Assembly: GCA_054600435.1 (NCBI GenBank) | Contig: BAAIJX010000001.1 | Coordinates: 310,001 to 374,000, forward strand | Origin: Neophaeotheca triangularis | Lineage: Eukaryota | Direction: 5' to 3' | DNA: 64,000 nucleotides | Part shown: one piece after another, positions 18,485-57,812 of the stretch | Layout: each line of letters starts with the position of its first letter | Position numbering within the stretch: the stretch's first letter is position 1 | Made by a program: the position numbers and the translations under genes | Notes under the pieces: model-generated | Told to the model about the DNA's origin: nothing | Databases searched by the model: none | The model's input: only the letters and a program-made list of their open reading frames with translations

Positions 18485-19691
18485 ATGACGGACAAGCTAC
18501 CGCACAACCTGCTGCAGCTCTTTGCGCCGCGCCCGGCCCTCCGTTACCTGCCTAACGGCGACTTCGATACCTCGTCGCGCAAGACTGCCCACATCAGCGG
18601 CGTCGCGCAATTTCTACCTGCTGCCGAGGAGAATGCCCAAGTCCCCTACAATCCCGCTGAGTCCTGGCTCGAAGCGCGCGACCGCAAAATGCTCGAGAAG
18701 AAGGAGCACCAGGAATACCTACAGAATGATGGTTTCGCCAAGGAGTTCAAACCTTCCCAAGATCCCAAGATCCGTGGCGACGCCTTCCGCACTCTCTTCG
18801 TCAGCCGTCTAGACTACAAGACCGATACAGCGGATCTGCAGCACGAGTTTGGCAAATATGGCCCCATTGAGCGCATCCGCATCGTCACCAACACGGGCGA
18901 GTCCGAAACCAAGAAGAAGGGTAAGCCGCGCGGCTACGCGTTTGTTGTGTACGAGAACGAGAAAGACATGAAGGGTAAGATATGACCCCCTCTTTTTACC
19001 TCCAATTAAAGGTAAGCCCTGCTTACACTAATCCTCTCTGGTCACAGAGGCGTACAAGCACACCGACAACCTCAAAATAAGGAACCGCAACGTCCTTGTG
19101 GATGTCGAACGTGGCCGTACGGTAGCTGGCTGGCGTCCTCGTCGCTTCGGTGGTGGGCTTGGCGGCCGTCACTACACAAAGGCGCCAAGCGCCAAGCCAG
19201 GCTTCGGTGGGCCTCCTATGGGTCCAGGTGGCTTCCGTGGCGGCTTCGGTGGTGGCTTCCGTGGGCGAGGTGGCTTCGACGGTGGTTTCCGTGGTGGTAG
19301 AGGCGGCTTCCGTGGCGGTGATCGTGGCGGATATGGTGGACGTGGTGGGCACGGCGGTGATCGTGGGGGCTATGGTGGTGGCCGGGGCGGTATTGGTTAC
19401 CAGAGCGGCGATGGTCCGCCTGGCCCGCGTGGCCCGCCTGGTGGCGGTTACGGTGGAGGTGGCCGCGGCGGGTATGGCGGTGGAGGAGGCTCGCGCTACG
19501 ATGACCGCGGCTACGGCGGAGGCGGTGGAAGATCCAACGCCAACATGGAACCACTGCCACCACGAGGCGGAGGCTACCGTGATCGCGACGCTGGTGGCAT
19601 GGGTGGTGGGTATCAACCTGGATCAAAGCGCTCCTACGACGGTGACGGACCAGGTGGGTATGACGACAGCAGGTCTCGCAGACGCTACTAG
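18485..19691 (+). CDS. SNP1: U1 snRNP 70K protein; intron 18975-19047
   Basis: [18 protein letters not shown]-terminus, RRM ([16 protein letters not shown]), [23 protein letters not shown] and RGG tail. Splicing gives MK-EAYK. Confidence 0.95.
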
Positions 19692-39512: not shown

Positions 39513-39555
<43 letters not shown>

Positions 39556-39569
39556 ATAGTGGTAGTAGT
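39513..39569. repeat. (AGT)n microsatellite, imperfect at its right end
   Basis: Read directly. Confidence 0.9.
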
Positions 39570-40323
39570 CGTCTTTGCCCTCGGGTTACCGACAAGCTGT
39601 TACGGACGTCGCTACTACCTCCGGAGGTATCCATCCCCTGAAACAGGTTACAACCCTAAGGCACAGTACCTACCTACCTAGGTACCTTAGGTACTGTATC
39701 TAACAACTCCGTAGGTACCTCGTAACCTCACCCAGCACGGCGGCAAGCGCACGTTGCCAGCACGAGCCCGACGGCCTCGAACTCGGTGCAGCACGGCCGG
39801 TTCTTGATACAGCCACAGCTTCAGGCCCACGAGCGTCTCCGAGTCGGAGCAATTATAATCCACAGATGTGCAACAGGGCAGACACCTGCATCCTAATCAG
39901 TTGAACAGGGCACCCGCAGGATCGGCGCCTAATCTTTTTCGCTACTCGCCCTTCTGTGCTTTTTAACAGTAAGCGCCAGGAACAGCCGCTAAAATTAGGC
40001 CACCCCGTCACGACTCACAAACAACCAGTTCGACGACATAGGGCCTGGTTTTTGAATCGTGCCGCTTTTCCTTAGATCGTTTGCATCGTTCTATTGAGTA
40101 TTTTGAAGACGATGACGAGAGGTGCGACGCGCTAAAGCTGACAACGGGCCACCGTACCGTCATGCACCAAACATGTCGACAGCCTCGATGCGAAGACGGA
40201 AAGCAGTTGGTTTGACGTGTCTCACTTGGCTAGCTATGTGCTGATAACCATGACCAGCTAGTTGTTTCTTGCTTCTACAATGCTAGTCGAACAAACGTTG
40301 CGAACATGCCAACTTCAGCCCCT

Positions 40324-49730: not shown

Positions 49731-50794
49731 ATGGCGACCATAATTCCAGTCATAGACATCAACCAGCCCGACGCTGCCACCAAGCTACTAGCGGCAGCAT
49801 CCCAACATGGTTTTGTGTACATCGAGAATAACGAGGCCACCGGCGTACCACCAGGCGAGATATCAAAAATGTTCTATCTGTCGCGAGACTTCTTCACAGC
49901 GCCCGAAGCCATCAAAGAAGCCGTCTCAATCTCCTCATCGGAAGCGGGCAAGAACGTAGGATACCTCAAAAGAGGCGTCGAGAAACTTGATTCCCACAAC
50001 CAACCACGAGCAGACGTCAAAGAGTAAGCTAGAACAACCCCATCCCGAGCCTTCTCCCACCGTTGAACCTCTAACGCCCCAACAGAGCCTTCAACATGGG
50101 CGAACCCCTGAACAACACCCTCCAGCAACCGCTCCCCAAACCCCTAGCGCCGCACGCCGAAACGCTCCTGCGCTTCCAAAACTCCTGCCACGAGCTCTCG
50201 CAAAAACTACTCAAGCTCTTCGCCACGGCGCTCGAGCTTCCTTCAAACTGGTTCCAACTCCGACACGACCGCTCCCAAGGCCCTTCGGGAACCGTCTTCC
50301 GCCTGCTCTACTACCCGCAAGTCGGAGATGCGCAGCAGGGCGTCGACATCCGCGCGGGAGCCCATAGCGATTATGGCAGTTTGACGCTCTTGTTTCAATT
50401 GCCTGGGCAGCCGGGGTTGGAGATCAGGACGCCTGGCGGGGAATGGATGGCCGTGGCTGTGGATCCTTTGGCTAATGGGGAGGAGGGGTCCGCAAGGCCG
50501 CTGCCGATTCTCGTTAACATTGGCGATTTGCTCGAGGATTGGACGGGGGGACTACTCAAGTCGACGGTGCATAGGGTTGTCTTTCCCGCTGCTGGGGAGG
50601 CGGGAGTGGACCGCTATTCCATGGCTTATTTCTGTCATCCTTTGGATGATGCTGAGTTGGTCCCGGTGCCTAGTAAGATTGTCGAAGAACACGCGAAGAA
50701 GAGTGTTGCGCAGCCCGGCAGAGACGGGGGCAAAGCCATCACGGCGAAGGAGCACTTGATGAATCGACTGGCTGCTTCGTATACAGTCAAGTGA
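49731..50794 (+). CDS. 2-oxoglutarate/Fe(II)-dependent dioxygenase (IPNS/DIOX family); intron 50024-50085
   Basis: IPVID, GFVY, RLLYYP, HSDYGSLTLL (HxD), VNIGDLL, STVHRV and RYS. Confidence 0.92.
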
Positions 50795-51098: not shown

Positions 51099-53546
51099 TT
51101 ACCCTTCGTCCCGGTGCCCATTATTATGGTGACTTGTGGTCGGGCTGGACTCCGAGTCTTGCAGGGTTGTCGAGCCCCCGCTTTCAGACAAGTCGTTGTC
51201 CGCCCGACTAGCCTCATTGGCGTTAGTCGAGGCTCGGAGCGGTGAAGGAGCTTGCGCAGACGAATTTCGCTGTCGGTCCGAGTCGTGTTGTTGATTTATA
51301 CGGGCTGGCGCAGGAATAACAGTGGGTGTATCGGAAGGTCCAGCGCCCCGAGAACTAATCTCATGGGCTCTGGGGGGTGGTGCCTGAGTGGAGCTGCCTC
51401 GATGTAAGAAGGCACCAGGACCACTGCTACTACTTGCGAGTGTGGTAGAGCCGGTTGCTCCAGATTGCTGACTCGGCTCATGGTTCTGCAAAGCCCCCGA
51501 AATCGTAGGCGTGTCCTCTCTTCTCGCTACATCAGGACTCCAAGTACGTCCACTGCCTCGTGGCTGCGCCGGTATAACAGTGACGGGAATGTCGGTTTGC
51601 GCTTGGTCGCTGCGCCGATTCACACGGTCGCGCACCCTATCACCAGTTTCCGCAGCCAAAACACCCAAACGATTCTTGACGTCCCATGGCTTGAAGTTGT
51701 GTGCTGGCGTAGCGGCTCGAGTCTTCTCTCCAGAAAGAGGGTCACTGGCTTGTTGCACTTCCAATGGAGGTGACGCTCGCTTCCGTTTGAACGGATTGGG
51801 TACCGCCAACCACTTGTGGTTGTCCTTGGGCCGTGAGCGATGGGCTTGACCTTCGTCAGTTCCTTCTTTCTCAGGATCTCTAGCGCGACCTAGTCGCTCT
51901 GCTGCCGCGGTGTTGTTGTTGCGAGCTTCTTGTCGCCTGCGTACGGGTTGCGACACTTCATCTACAGGATGATAGTGCATGACGTATACCGTGCTCGCCG
52001 CACTCGTGGTGTCTGCCCGGCTGACGGGGCTGGCAACTTGCGGCGGCGGAGTGGGTCCGCCAACCATGGCTTCCCCTTGTCGTCGTCCGTGGGATGGCCT
52101 TGGCAGATTGCCGAAGGCGACGTTGCCGTTGCCGGGGCCATTTCCATGCGGGCCACCAGTGTTGGCATTGTCTGGCGTTAGGGTAGTGGCGTGGGAATGT
52201 GCCCTGCCGAGCGGGAAATGATGTTGGCGGTTTTTCTTCTGGTGACGAAGGCGCTGCGCCATGTTGTTGATGCCGCTTTCCAGAGCGCTCGAGCCCATAA
52301 GGCCGCCCGAGCCGCCTCCACCATCGTTGTCGTCCTCGTCATTTCCAGAATCGCCAAAGGGGTTTCGACCGCGCCGGTTCCGGCTCCATACCACAGCATC
52401 GCTATGCGTCACGTCTAGCATGTCGTCTCCGTCGAAGATTTCGCGTCCAAGTATGCCATCCTTTTTCTCGTCTCTCTCCAACGCCTCTATTCTCTCCACC
52501 CATTCCCAGACGACGACGGCTGCTGCGGCGGCACCAACCCAACGGAAATAATCTCCCCAGGCAGCAACGTCCGGCTTGCTGACATCCGTGATGAAAAAGA
52601 CGCATGGAGTTAGCACGGCAATGACGGATAGAACCCCAACCAACATGATATTGCGCATCTTGGAATGGTAGAAAGCATAGCGCCGCTTGGTCATGGCGTA
52701 GTAGAGAACCCAGGCGGCATACAGCAGTCCAAGCGAAAGTTCGAATAGGTAACTCAAGGCTGGTATGGCGTCAACAAATTGCCGCGGCCGCCGTGAATTG
52801 TCAACCAGGAAACTGTTCAGACAGGCAAAAGTTGTATCCAGTATAATCAAACAGAAACCAATCCATTTGATCAGGACCTTCTCCTTGTGCCGCGGAAAGA
52901 GCCGTATAAGCGTTTGCACTTGAGCTAGCCAGAGGAATATGTCGCTGATGATCCTCGTCACACGAATTTCGAGAGAGCCCAAGACACCGTCCGCAAGGGC
53001 ATCGGCATCCATATAACCATTGTGATACTGCCCTCTGGAGACTTTGAACGTGTCGTACGTGGCGATGGTAAGCGAGATGGCCACGGTGAGTGCGGCGACT
53101 TTCTGCAGCCAAGGTCGCGATCCTACGCCTATCATATTGGTGCCTCCTCCTGTCGCGCCGCCTATTAAGCCCCTGCCACTACTGAAGTTGGGCGCAGTAC
53201 CTGGATGGCCTAAATACGACGTCCTCGGCGTAATGATGAGCATGATGACCAAGATCCAGGCTATAACGGTCGCGGCGGCCACGACGTAGACTTGGGGTAT
53301 GGTGGACGCGTAGAATGGGTCCTGAAGATCGGCGACGGACGAAGGATCCCCGATATGAGGCGACCAGTCGCCCGTACATGCGGGCTGGAAGATGACGTTC
53401 TCGGTAAGGGTGATGGCCTGGTTTTCGAAAGTGATGACACCGCCGGATGGGAGTGCGAAGGGGGTACATTGCGAGGTGATAGTGTTGGTAGAGGTGGGTG
53501 GTATGTCCCAGAGTTGGCGCCGGACCGCTTCAAAGTCATGATGCAT
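51099..53546 (-). CDS. palH: Ambient pH sensor PalH (7-TM)
   Basis: DPFYASTIPQ, RPWLQK, WLAQVQTLIRLFPRHKEK and VWEWVERIEALER...GILGREIF, then a long cytosolic tail. Confidence 0.92.
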   Translation of the reverse strand: MHHDFEAVRRQLWDIPPTSTNTITSQCTPFALPSGGVITFENQAITLTENVIFQPACTGDWSPHIGDPSSVADLQDPFYASTIPQVYVVAAATVIAWILVIMLIITPRTSYLGHPGTAPNFSSGRGLIGGATGGGTNMIGVGSRPWLQKVAALTVAISLTIATYDTFKVSRGQYHNGYMDADALADGVLGSLEIRVTRIISDIFLWLAQVQTLIRLFPRHKEKVLIKWIGFCLIILDTTFACLNSFLVDNSRRPRQFVDAIPALSYLFELSLGLLYAAWVLYYAMTKRRYAFYHSKMRNIMLVGVLSVIAVLTPCVFFITDVSKPDVAAWGDYFRWVGAAAAAVVVWEWVERIEALERDEKKDGILGREIFDGDDMLDVTHSDAVVWSRNRRGRNPFGDSGNDEDDNDGGGGSGGLMGSSALESGINNMAQRLRHQKKNRQHHFPLGRAHSHATTLTPDNANTGGPHGNGPGNGNVAFGNLPRPSHGRRQGEAMVGGPTPPPQVASPVSRADTTSAASTVYVMHYHPVDEVSQPVRRRQEARNNNTAAAERLGRARDPEKEGTDEGQAHRSRPKDNHKWLAVPNPFKRKRASPPLEVQQASDPLSGEKTRAATPAHNFKPWDVKNRLGVLAAETGDRVRDRVNRRSDQAQTDIPVTVIPAQPRGSGRTWSPDVARREDTPTISGALQNHEPSQQSGATGSTTLASSSSGPGAFLHRGSSTQAPPPRAHEISSRGAGPSDTPTVIPAPARINQQHDSDRQRNSSAQAPSPLRASTNANEASRADNDLSESGGSTTLQDSESSPTTSHHNNGHRDEG

Positions 53547-53747
53547 TGCCTTGCGCGGTGGACGAACGCGGTTTTATTGTCCACAAGGCGCGCGGGTGTC
53601 TCTTAGACTCGAGGGTCAATCGGGTGGGCGCAGCATTGAAAGGATGAGCGGTAGGCGCAGTTTGGGGATGAGCAGCGCGATGATGGCGGCGAGGGTGGGG
53701 GGCGAGGCAGCGATGAAGGGTCGGGCGATGGGTCGGTGGCGGCGGAG

Positions 53748-53830
53748 GTGGTGGTTGTGGTGGTGGTGGTGGTTGTGGTGGTGGTGGTGGTTGTGGTGGT
53801 GGTTGTGGTGGTGGTGGTGGTTGTGGTGGT
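53748..53830. repeat. Compound (TGG/TTG)n trinucleotide repeat upstream of palH
   Basis: About 27 GT-rich triplets read directly. Confidence 0.9.
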
Positions 53831-54396
53831 GCAAGGCGATGTAAGGTTGGCCGACGTGTGTTCTGGCCTGGGCTGGGCTAGGCGGAAGCGTGAGTGGGTA
53901 GTTTAAGTTGGGTCGTCTGGTGCAGGGCAGCGATGGCGCGGATGGGTGAGGAGAAGCGTGTGAGGTTGTCTTGGCTTGGCCCCCAGGTGTCAGCCCTAAG
54001 TCAGTAAAGAGTTAGCGTGGGTGTGCTAGTACTGATTCGGAAAACGTGGGACATCCTCGCGGCCAGTGCACCAACAAGACTTTGTGAGAAGCTGCACATC
54101 TTGCACACGATCTTGCCGAGCTTGCTTGCCTTTTGCTTATCGCCCACGTGATGCTGCCTCCCCACCGCTCCGGTCGTCGCTCCCGTCCGGGTCCGTTGGT
54201 CTTGATGCCGTCACGTGAGACCACATGTTGTGCACGTGGTGATAACGTTAGCCTAGGTTAAGCAGACTGTCACCTCCTCTCTCGACCATCTGTTACCGAC
54301 CGTGCGTGCAACTACCACTCATTATTTAAAAACAAAACACGTTCAGACTTCTAAGAGTAGGTTGTAGAAGCAAACATCACCCCTACTCCAACTACC

Positions 54397-55463
54397 ATGA
54401 CAGCCTCATTGAAATCACTACATCCATTCCTGGAATCTCATTCCACCCAGACCAGCTCTGGATGTACCGTCAAAAGCTACTCATTCCATCATGCCTCAGG
54501 CCCAGTATTGCTCATGGTACATGGCTACCCTCAAAGTAGTTATAGTAAGTGTGACCACCAGGCCCGCCGAGACTTGGAAAATAGCGATACTGATCTCTAT
54601 ACAGTGTAAGCATCGCCCACCATGTTCCACTTCGACAAAGTGTTGATCAACCCAGGTGGCGCCACATGATCCCCGACGTGAAGGACAAATTCTCTCTCTT
54701 CATTCCTGAACTCCCTGGCTACGGTATTTCCTCGCTACCTCCGCAGCATGACAAACGCACCGTTGGCCGCATCATAATTGAAGCGTGCAAGAAGGTGCTC
54801 GGTCAGGATCGACCCATCATATGGTGCGGACACGACAGAGGGGCTCGCGTGGGGCACCGCCTGCTCGTAGACGCCGACCCTGCGCACAAACTCCGCGCTG
54901 CCATTCTAATGGACATTGTCCCTACCATAGAGCAATGGCGCTGCTTCTCGAATCCGGCGGCCAGCATGGGGTACTTCCACTGGCCGTTCCTAGCCCTGCC
55001 GACTGCTCCCGACATGATTGATGCCATGGGTGGCGATTTCTTTTGCCGCCAGATTCTGAACAAGGGCGCTTCGGCCAACGAGGCGGGCGCGAACTCTATC
55101 CAGGCTGATGGCGCGTACGAACTTTACTGCGAGCAATTCAAGAAGCGCGAAACCATCGAGGGGAGTTGTGCTGATTATGCTTCGGCCTCTGCGGCAGGCG
55201 CTGAGTTGGAGGAGCAGAAGAAGGACCAGGCTGAGGGGAGAAAGGTCTCGCAGCCCATGATGGTGATTTACTCTGCTGGTAGCTTGGGGAGAATGCACGA
55301 TGTGGAGAGCATCTGGCCGCTGTGGGCGGATGGTGAATTGAAGCAAGTAGGTATTGGAGAGGGCCACGGGCACTACTTGCCCGAGAGCTGTCCTGAGGCG
55401 ATTACGGACCTAGTGCTCAAGTGGACAAGCAAGGTACAACAATCCGCTGGATGGCGTCTTTGA
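54397..55463 (+). CDS. Alpha/beta-hydrolase, fluoroacetate/haloacetate dehalogenase-like; exons 54397-54544, 54605, 54656-55463
   Basis: HGYPQ, PGYG, GHDRGAR, LMDIVPT, YFHWPF, CADY and GHYLPE motifs. Confidence 0.88.
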
Positions 55464-55499: not shown

Positions 55500-56984
55500 C
55501 TAGAATGGTTTGTCTATGTATCCAGTCCTGCAAACCGGCTGTGACCAGCCCGCACTCCATCGCACACCTCCCATGATCGCAATCAAAAGACACAGTCCAC
55601 CCGCCGTACTCGCAATAGCGTAGAAATACGCATGCTTCAGCCTTAACCCGTTAATCTCCGCAACCCAAGTGGAAACAGTGGTAAGACAACCGCAAAAACC
55701 ATCCTCAATTCCTTGCAACACCTGGCAGCCCACTCGGCCGCCACCAGGCATACCCCCGACGCCGACGCCAACGTGCTGAATATCGTAGCACATGCCAAGA
55801 ATCGCCGTGCCCAGCATGTTGACAGCAAAGGTCCCCAATGGGAACCAAGGCACAAGACCGTTTAACTCCCGCGATGCATAGAACCGAAGCAGGCACCCCA
55901 GCGGTGCGAAAACGAGCGCGAAGAGTACCTCGCCTCGCCAAGTATCGGATGGAGGCCAAATGGAAAGAAAGACTGCTCCAAGCCATGAGCCGAACCCAAG
56001 AAATACGGCAATGGGGTTAATAATGCGACGGACGACGCTTTTGCTGAAATTAGGCGTCACGCTGTCGAGGAAGACGGCGACGTGTGCGCCTACTTTGAGC
56101 GCACCTATGCACAAGGCAATTGTGAGGAGTATGACAGCCAGCACGGCCTCGACTGAGTAGCCGTTGTGGCGGCTTCTAGTGGAATTTGGAAGGATATCGC
56201 TACCGGCTGGTGTAGGGTGGTTGAGAGGAGTCGGAAGGTCATTGGACAAGGCCAGGAAAACGTCGCGCTCAAAAGACGAAAAGGAGGTGAAGCTGCCACA
56301 AAAGCCGGTTGCGAGGCCGATGTATAGCGATATCGTTTTCTTCCGTTTGGAACTCTCTGCTTTTTGCTCGGCCGCCAAGTCGGCTGAATGCTGTGATTGC
56401 CTGTGGTGATGCTTCATTTCCAGTGCCGTATTTGCTTCGTCGTCTCTGAAAAGATTTTGGTCTTCCGCCAGGAAGCCCATGAGGAAGGACCCAGCAACAT
56501 TTGCCCAAAGAACCGGCGTGACTGCAGGGGCTCCCGCGTAGAATGTCAGCCATTGCAGTCCGAGTCTTGCAAGTGTCCCGAATATGGAGAAGAGGACGAG
56601 GTACGCCGCGGCGTATAACTCTGTCAACCATCGTGGTAGTCTATCGACCGGCTCCGTCGGCAGGTAACTCGCTGGCTGTCTCTGGTGAAAGGCGGGCGGC
56701 TGAGCGCTATCGGAAGATTCTGAAAAGTCCCCTTGACTGGTTCCGGCACCGCTTTGTTGGCGATTCTCATCGTCTCGCTCATCCTCCAGGGTGTGTTCTC
56801 GGCGACCGTCCTCAAATTTTCGGTCAACGGGCGGCGGGACTGCCACTTCGTCTAGGCCTTCGAATTCTGAGGTTTGTTGAGTGCTAGTGCGCTTTCCCTT
56901 GCCACGATCGCTCTCATGGCTGATGCCCTGGTTTCCCGGCGTGACGAGCGACTTGGGTTCCTGTGAGGACGATGCTTCCGGCAT
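55500..56984 (-). CDS. FEX1: Fluoride exporter FEX (two fused CrcB/Fluc domains)
   Basis: Domain 1: GTLARL, ANVAGSFLMG, GFCGSFTSFSSF. Domain 2: GCLLRF, GTFAVNMLG, GFCGCLTTVST. First in-frame ATG at 56984. Confidence 0.93.
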   Translation of the reverse strand: MPEASSSQEPKSLVTPGNQGISHESDRGKGKRTSTQQTSEFEGLDEVAVPPPVDRKFEDGRREHTLEDERDDENRQQSGAGTSQGDFSESSDSAQPPAFHQRQPASYLPTEPVDRLPRWLTELYAAAYLVLFSIFGTLARLGLQWLTFYAGAPAVTPVLWANVAGSFLMGFLAEDQNLFRDDEANTALEMKHHHRQSQHSADLAAEQKAESSKRKKTISLYIGLATGFCGSFTSFSSFERDVFLALSNDLPTPLNHPTPAGSDILPNSTRSRHNGYSVEAVLAVILLTIALCIGALKVGAHVAVFLDSVTPNFSKSVVRRIINPIAVFLGFGSWLGAVFLSIWPPSDTWRGEVLFALVFAPLGCLLRFYASRELNGLVPWFPLGTFAVNMLGTAILGMCYDIQHVGVGVGGMPGGGRVGCQVLQGIEDGFCGCLTTVSTWVAEINGLRLKHAYFYAIASTAGGLCLLIAIMGGVRWSAGWSQPVCRTGYIDKPF

Positions 56985-57812
56985 CGAGGCAGTGTAGCAG
57001 TGGAATGCTTTCAATGAGCGCTCCCAACTTGAAAATACAGCGCCGACTATGTCATAGTCACAGCCCCTGAAAAACGCTCGATGGCGATCACGGCAGAGGT
57101 GTTGATCCGGATGGCAGAACACAGAAACAAAAACCTCCAGGGGGCAGCGGACAAATGATAATAAGAATCGAGGTATGTCAATAGAGTTACGGCTATCGGA
57201 TCAACAGGCCCGGTGTTCGAACATTCTGTGCCGACGACAATGATGATAATAATAATGGCATCTTCGGGAGGTGATGACGATGCCAGGGATGTTTACGGTT
57301 TGCACTCCCGTTCTGCAGAGGTGGTGGCCCTGGTGGAGGTTGCGCACTGTGGCACTACTAGGAGGTACTGGCAAGTGGCAACTCAGATCAGGTGCTCACC
57401 TGCAGTGCCTCCACGACTCGGACGGATTGAGTTTTCGAGGGCCGGAAAGTTGAAAGCTCAAGGTATGAAGCCGCTTCGCTCTTCCGCTCGCCGCTTCCGA
57501 CTTAGCTTGGCCGTGATAGCGCAAGGTCGTAGTACTAACCGCCCATCTGCCGTAACTAACGCTTGCTAAGGTCGAGCGGCTCTTGCTTACCTTATCAGCC
57601 TTATCGTCGTTATCTCTGGGCCCCGCGTTCACGTGTCAAGCACAAGATAAGACGTCAACAACGACGTCTATGGTCGTACCCAGGTCGTCTACGTTGTTGT
57701 GACCGCCGAGATAAACAATCTCGACATATATCTGTACTGTCAATACATAGTATCAAACAACCATCTACTCCCCAACGAGCCCCTTCTTACTACCTTCGCG
57801 CAAATCAACGAC

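Follow-up and report, generated by a model that had tools for sequence, protein, structure and literature searches.

Can a single nucleotide act as an exon in a fungal hydrolase gene? The question is raised by a locus on the forward strand of a 64-kb stretch of DNA, referred to throughout as the window, in which the initial annotation described two introns lying back to back around one T and proposed that this base is needed to build the hydrolase frame. One-base exons represent the lower limit of what a spliceosome can keep, and the locus also exposes a class of annotation error, in that the deposited model of an identical gene has Ser-Lys in place of a conserved Met, within the loop that follows the oxyanion motif. 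We analyze here the splice signals, the fit of each possible product to its protein family, the intron positions in orthologous loci and the contigs available from RNA libraries, and conclude, with a probability of a little under four in five, that T 54605 is a real one-base exon completing the conserved Met codon.

Materials and methods

Splice patterns were enumerated over positions 54480-54720 by considering all GT/GC..AG combinations of one or two introns, with a minimum length of 35 nt per intron and an uninterrupted frame between the ATG at 54397 and the stop codon. Fit to the protein family was scored with a profile built from 52 homologues. Intron positions were compared at four fungal-type orthologous loci (L001 to L004) from metagenome contigs. 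Intron-like segments were sought on both strands of the window with a strict pattern (GTAAGT start, a branch motif of the CTRAY/TTRAY type, YAG end, 45-85 nt). A crude set of introns bridging open reading frames (ORFs) in the window comprises 16 unverified candidates of 50-196 nt, with a median of 82 nt and 9 of the 16 at 50-68 nt.

Structure of the locus

The segments of the gene are listed in Table 1. The letters, coordinates and segment lengths given for this region at the outset (60 nt, a single T, 50 nt) match the sequence in every instance. Exon 1 opens with a start codon at 54397-54399, encodes MTAS..LMVHGYPQSSY and reads ..AGT AGT TAT A at its 3′ end. The branch-like motif of intron 1 places its A 11 nt from the 3′ end of the intron, which terminates in ..TATACAG at 54604; that of intron 2 places its A 9 nt from an end reading ..AACCCAG. 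On either side of the T at 54605 there is thus a complete intron with its own GT donor, branch motif and AG acceptor, and both introns pass the intron-pattern filter.

Table 1. Segments of the hydrolase gene and the alternative donor, in window coordinates
Feature	Position	Strand	Description
Exon 1	54397..54544	+	ATG to ..TAT A; 49 codons plus A, first base of the Met codon
Intron 1	54545..54604	+	60 nt; GTAAGT .. CTGAT (54590-54594) .. ACAG
One-nucleotide exon	54605..54605	+	T, middle base of the Met codon (A, T, G)
Intron 2	54606..54655	+	50 nt; GTAAGC .. TTGAT (54643-54647) .. CCCAG; phase 2
Exon 3	54656..55463	+	G (third base of the Met codon), then TGG CGC CAC ..; 268 codons; stop TGA at 55461-55463
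Alternative donor GTGTGA	54549..54554	+	with acceptor 54655, 107-nt intron, YSKW, 319 aa

Excision of both segments yields HGYPQSSYMWRH and a protein of 318 aa; as originally described, A, T and G join into ATG and the family motif is restored. Removal of 54545-54655 as a single piece was likewise confirmed to shift the frame, with a stop after ..YSGAT. The claim that the one-base exon is needed to build the frame proved overstated, in that two other in-frame readings exist. Joining donor 54549 to acceptor 54655 leaves the frame open through ..YSKWRH.. (319 aa), and excising intron 2 while retaining intron 1 also does so, the 60 nt being a multiple of three without a stop, giving a product of 338 aa in which the 21 residues SKCDHQARRDLENSDTDLYTV stand in place of the Met.

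Gene product and protein family

Judged by homology, the gene is a fluoroacetate-dehalogenase-type alpha/beta hydrolase of a Dothideomycete (marine) black yeast. Exon 3 alone matches Pfam Abhydrolase_1 with 26.5 bits (cut-off 25.8), and a homologue search gave 575 matches, the nearest named ones being Dothideomycetes with 53-61% identity; homologues cover exon 3 to 97-99%. Exon 1 is identical to the N-terminus of the orthologue P0005 at 31 of 47 residues (66%), and the match stops exactly at the Tyr that precedes Met-Trp. The same orthologue aligns over its full length with fluoroacetate dehalogenases of known structure (PDB 5k3d, 3r3u and others; E 7e-40) and has the motifs HGxPxxxxMW, GHDRGxR, HW and GH..LPEE in common with them, although identity is about 30-35% as judged by eye in the alignment and the activity of the fungal enzyme is putative.

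The columns GHDRGxR, DIVPT, HW, DY and GH are invariant in an alignment that includes the window's protein. Following the fluoroacetate dehalogenase literature, we take HGxP to form the oxyanion loop in this protein, the Asp in GHDRG to be the nucleophile, and the HW, Y and His motifs to play their corresponding roles. With these catalytic-type residues kept, the gene looks intact apart from the splice question. Translation from the ATG at 54666 without exon 1, which would lose the HGxP loop, is unlikely because exon 1 matches the orthologue (66%), carries HGxP and is covered by a contig from an RNA library.

Genomic surroundings

The hydrolase gene is convergent with a CrcB-like (FEX-type) putative fluoride exporter on the reverse strand (55503-57200), which contains two CrcB stretches (Pfam PF02537, E 1.2e-32). 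About 40 nt separate the end of the CrcB-like ORF from the hydrolase stop codon, so that the 3′ ends of the two genes have to lie very close to each other or overlap. The putatively defluorinating enzyme and the putative fluoride exporter may form a functional pair, a suggestion and nothing firmer; CrcB was found in none of the 80 loci for which flanks of 1.5 kb were searched.

On the other side, a long reverse-strand ORF (51102-53573) carries a PalH/RIM21 domain, typical of a pH-signalling receptor (E 5e-116), and a (GGT/GGC)n low-complexity stretch (53682-53851) lies between it and the hydrolase promoter. Further upstream, a forward-strand ORF at 50024-50791 encodes a 2OG-Fe(II) oxygenase (Pfam PF03171, E 2e-16), in which the crude ORF-bridging scan placed a candidate 62-nt GTAAGC intron at 50024-50085. 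Elsewhere, the window contains tandem GGTGGCTTCCGTGGC-type repeats with a period of 9-12 (19221-19499), which code for a Gly/Arg/Phe-rich, RGG-like stretch, and an (AGT)n microsatellite (39516-39572).

Splice patterns and family spacing

The enumeration returned 210 open splice combinations. The spacing of the family, HG.P followed by five residues and W/F/Y(-R-H), appears in only one of them, the pair 54545-54604 and 54606-54655. The phases of exons 1 and 3 are incompatible; one extra base reconciles them with the motif kept, and the other in-frame readings break it.

The spacing itself is nearly constant. The full motif is present in 53 of the 120 homologues listed, and among these matches 52 of the 53 have exactly five residues between the P and the aromatic residue, and at the fifth of them M occurs 29 times, E 12 times, I 8 times and L, V and T once each. 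A gap-free alignment of this stretch is also obtained with the bacterial fluoroacetate dehalogenase 5k3d (HGFPQTHVMW). The single exception, a Baudoinia panamericana gene model (P0012), has 15 more residues between Met and Trp, reading HGYPQSSYM-YILSFSQPARAERSR-WRH. These residues resemble an in-frame retention of the family's 45-nt phase-2 intron, another likely annotation error at this site. On the family profile, the product of the one-base exon scores 482.6 bits, against 474.2 for the YSKW product and 459.5 for the product that retains intron 1.

The HGxP motif is missing in 64 of 122 proteins, a set made up of the gene's own two pieces and the 120 matches listed. Many of the homologues without it measure 242-280 aa and begin right after the W-R-H site or are read from the 3′ end of the intron. 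These are ORF-caller products cut at the conserved intron and not genuine short forms, and many public homologues are truncated at this site.

Intron positions in orthologous loci

The initial annotation had proposed comparing intron positions in orthologues. Three of the four orthologous loci (L001, L002 and L003) read TAC AT, then an intron that starts GT(A/G)AG and ends in AG, then (G/C) TGG CG; each has a single intron, in phase 2 of the codon preceding Trp, with lengths of 54, 58 and 68 nt, respectively, as counted by hand on the sequence. The fourth (L004) is intronless at the site. The P0012 model and two ORF-type matches, P0024 (..CR before WRH) and P0034 (..KR before WRH), indicate the same intron site as in the three loci. 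The position of intron 2 is therefore that of the orthologues' single intron, whereas the phase-1 site one base upstream, occupied by intron 1 in the window, has no intron in L001-L003. The layout with a one-base exon was found in none of the three loci that carry an intron here. L001 also matches intron 2 in its GTAAGC start and in a GTGTTGA branch region.

These positions argue that intron 2 is the family's old intron and intron 1 a feature specific to the lineage of the window; by the same comparison, intron 1 is probably young. Since the layout is missing from the orthologues, conservation cannot vouch for the one-base exon, unlike in the published cases.

Intron positions near the W-R-R/H motif differ among lineages in other respects as well. 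L002 (1170-1270) and L003 (818-945) each have an extra intron right after the W-R-R/H codons, starting GTGAGT.. and GTACGG.., respectively, which is missing in the window.

Contigs from RNA libraries

Three metatranscriptome runs from one sample contain small shares of the gene (0.16, 0.08 and 0.04). Their contigs cover only 54408-54677 (with a skip), 54684-54836, 55160-55362 and the sequence from 55568 onward, with exonic contigs over exon 3 in runs X1 and X3. Within this partial coverage, the doubly spliced junction that would join 54544, 54605 and 54656 does not occur among the contigs of the three runs, and protein searches with exon 1 alone found no spliced, near-identical product.

The informative contig comes from run X2 and is 210 nt long at a depth of 3.4. 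It runs from 54408 to 54542, continues with CA and resumes at 54605-54677, with intron 2 kept. With mismatches to the window at about 5 of its 210 positions (about 2%), it derives from a close relative and not from this genome. The window has TA at 54543-54544 where the contig has CA, so that the contig is most simply read as carrying a T-to-C change at 54543 (TAC, as in L001-L003) together with the absence of exactly 54545-54604. The joint is not movable: zero bases can be assigned to both of its sides, and T 54605 directly follows the A of 54544.

Two origins of this contig may be considered. The relative's DNA may lack intron 1, with the contig representing pre-mRNA or contaminating DNA, and the 60 nt would then be a precise GT..AG indel, the signature of intron gain or loss. 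Alternatively, the relative may have intron 1, with the contig representing an RNA at an intermediate stage of splicing, intron 1 having been excised ahead of intron 2, and this would show splicing of 54544 to 54605 directly and fix the order of removal. Either origin speaks against the use of donor 54549.

Properties of intron 1

The strict intron pattern found 9 segment ends in the window, against a mean of 3.85 (range 0-8) in 20 first-order Markov simulations, in which such ends arise at a rate of about 3e-5 per position. A looser donor pattern showed no enrichment (50 real ends, simulated mean 70.5); it does not discriminate and carries no weight.

Within the 64-kb window there is no second copy of intron 1, the longest blastn-short match being 11 nt, or of intron 2, for which it is 15 nt. 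The repeat search of the window returned only Gly-rich and low-complexity families and no dispersed family of intron size. The fold of intron 1 is not unusual, its minimum free energy being -7.7 kcal/mol where shuffled sequences average -9.41 (z +0.70); the z-scores obtained in the stability test (+0.70, +0.23 and -0.32) are all ordinary. The ends of the 60-nt intron show no target-site duplication. Within the window, nothing marks intron 1 as an introner-like element: it is short (60 nt), its fold is ordinary and no second copy was found there. An origin as a tandem copy of intron 2 was also dropped: the two introns have short words in common (CCACCAxG, TGATC) and, judged by eye, are clearly unlike overall.

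Alternative readings of the locus

Among the explanations that compete with a functional one-base exon, the one that survives best, while still unlikely, holds that the 60-nt insertion damaged the gene, so that donor 54545 is mostly joined to acceptor 54655, T 54605 is skipped and the allele is dying or of low output. The skipped product is indeed frameshifted, with its stop following ..YSGAT, and the insertion is missing in the orthologues and possibly in the close relative. Both large exons are nevertheless intact, and the 318-aa reading keeps the invariant residues of the family. Short fungal introns, moreover, are paired by intron definition, the model put forward for the Arabidopsis case discussed below, and the nearest branch site and acceptor are thereby preferred. 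Published experience falls on both sides: in potato invertase, 33% of transcripts skipped an artificial exon of 1 nt (cited in PMC4674806), whereas natural one-base exons are accurately spliced in Arabidopsis and Fusarium (PMC4674806, PMC12940212).

The public gene model embodies a second alternative. The NCBI entry GAB7357973.1 (P0123), annotated as Neophaeotheca triangularis and found in the 90% cluster of the nearest match, is identical to exon 1 at 49 of 49 residues and to exon 3 at 268 of 268, with Ser-Lys between them; it equals the product of donor 54549 letter for letter (..SSYSKWRH..). If this model were correct, one 107-nt intron would run from 54549 to 54655, T 54605 would be intronic and the protein would have YSKW and 319 aa. 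The frame is open, the model has been deposited for a gene identical in both large exons, donors of the GTGTG type occur in 2 of the 16 crude intron candidates of the window, and these candidates reach 196 nt. Intron length was dropped as an argument against the 107-nt intron, the crude set of 16 candidates being too weak for this purpose.

Several lines of evidence nonetheless make the public model improbable, and more so than a damaged allele. It places six residues between P and W, a spacing found in none of the 53 motif-bearing homologues listed, loses the Met, and scores 8.4 bits below the one-base-exon product on the family profile. It must bypass a consensus GTAAGT donor that lies 4 nt upstream in favor of GTGTGA, a weaker one, and it leaves unexplained why the relative's contig misses exactly 54545-54604. 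Gene predictors cannot model a one-base exon, and an in-frame workaround is what would be expected from them; a term search of the accessible text of the genome announcement (PMC13064199) found no mention of RNA-seq, gene prediction, BRAKER or AUGUSTUS, which also counts against the model. GAB7357973.1 is thus probably an automatic in-frame workaround, a mis-annotation caused by the one-base exon.

The least probable alternative, to which we give very little credence, is that only intron 2 is spliced and the 60 nt stay as an in-frame insert in a main product or sizeable isoform of 338 aa: the segment can be read through and intron retention is common in fungi, yet 20 codons remain open by chance about 38% of the time, (61/64)^20, the insert would fall right after the HGxP loop and lower the profile score by 23 bits, and the stretch has full intron signals with exact GT..AG ends relative to the relative's contig.

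A one-nucleotide exon completing A, T, G is therefore the best-supported reading of the locus, as the initial annotation had proposed, and the support comes from the splice enumeration, the profile fit, the position of intron 2 and the relative's contig.

Proposed splicing route and origin

Under a functional one-base exon, the Met codon that follows HGYPQSSY would be split across three exons as A, T and G. Intron 2 would be the old phase-2 intron, and intron 1, complete, canonical and 60 nt long, a later addition one base upstream of it that would have left T 54605 as an exon of one nucleotide. We infer that both introns are excised from the same transcript. With one base between them there would be no room for two spliceosomes at once, and removal would hence be successive, by intron definition. 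If intron 1 is removed first, the intermediate would read ..TATA-T followed by GTAAGC.. and so offer the next reaction an ordinary 5′ splice site. The opposite order would also be conceivable, with removal of intron 2 leaving ..ACAG followed by T-GTGG.., an ordinary 3′ splice site. A splice from donor 54545 to acceptor 54655 would leave out the T and produce a frameshifted mRNA; the idea in the initial annotation that such skipping could act as an off-switch gained no support from the analysis. The predicted product of the complete route is a 318-aa protein with the family spacing HGxPxxxxMW.

The sequence comparisons are consistent with intron 1 being a recent gain, and a more specific scenario can be put forward at somewhat less than even odds. 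The one-base exon may be young, created when a new intron was inserted, without a target-site duplication, one base 5′ of an ancient one, in which case relatives without intron 1 would represent a presence/absence polymorphism. If so, one-base exons would have a birth route unlike that proposed in print, and the locus would offer a natural intermediate for one-nucleotide intron "sliding", in which a neighbor is gained and the old intron is lost, so that the position changes from phase 2 to phase 1. An intron polymorphic among strains would also let the locus serve as a natural experiment on how costly and how efficient it is to splice around a one-base exon.

Comparison with known systems

Our literature search found no nuclear one-base exons beyond two published examples. 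In the APC11 gene of Arabidopsis, two introns enclose a constitutive exon of one base (Guo and Liu 2015, PMC4674806), and the authors of that study propose intron definition with successive, recursive-like removal of both introns, there being no room for two spliceosomes (PMC4674806). The window gene resembles APC11 in having one base between two introns and in the mechanism proposed here; it differs in that APC11 is a plant gene, was tested with GFP fusions and does not have a young or lineage-specific layout.

The closer parallel is the P450 gene CYP621A of Fusarium, which its authors present as the second example overall and the first in fungi (Nelson and Syed 2026, PMC12940212). As in the window, the gene belongs to a filamentous ascomycete, an exon ending in phase 1 and one starting in phase 2 are joined through a single base between complete, short introns, a conserved motif depends on that base, and the exon escapes annotation pipelines (PMC12940212). 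The base is G in CYP621A, set as AG-G-GT, and T in the window, set as AG-T-GT. According to the same source, the Fusarium exon is conserved in at least 20 Fusarium orthologues and SRA reads cross the joint (PMC12940212), whereas the window's layout is missing in orthologues and no contig of the three runs showed its doubly spliced junction. Its authors propose base loss and adoption of a cryptic exon, while the evidence from the window points to a new intron beside an old one.

Stwintrons of Pezizomycotina provide another point of comparison. They have in common with the window a complex intervening sequence that is removed by two consecutive standard reactions, and the 1-nt intron shift model likewise concerns introns whose positions lie one nucleotide from each other within one codon region (PMC5587772). 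In a stwintron, however, the internal intron splits a donor, branch site or acceptor of the external one, which becomes functional only once the first has been excised, and nothing is left between them, whereas each intron of the window is complete and a base is kept in the predicted mRNA. A stwintron reading was therefore rejected: no splice signal is interrupted, and the signals of both introns are intact in the unspliced sequence. One-base exons are not mentioned in the accessible part of PMC5639578, and that of PMC5587772 mentions only 1-nt intron shifts.

A background for intron gain is available in the Dothideomycetes. Rapid intron turnover between conspecific strains has been reported in Zymoseptoria, a genus of this class (PMC5647799), and accounts of intron gain in Mycosphaerellales-type Dothideomycetes describe new canonical introns at new positions that can differ between close strains (PMC5647799, PMC3609843, PMC4457414), much as suggested here. 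The introner-like elements described there are present as numerous similar copies, exceed regular introns in length and form stable folds; intron 1, in contrast, has 60 nt and an ordinary fold and is single in the window.

Set beside these systems, the window gene adds another fungal class, another gene and another base, T, to the one-base exons described so far. What is apparently new with respect to the published cases, as far as the compared sequences indicate, is a layout that is not conserved and seems young, in which a new intron has come to lie beside an old one.
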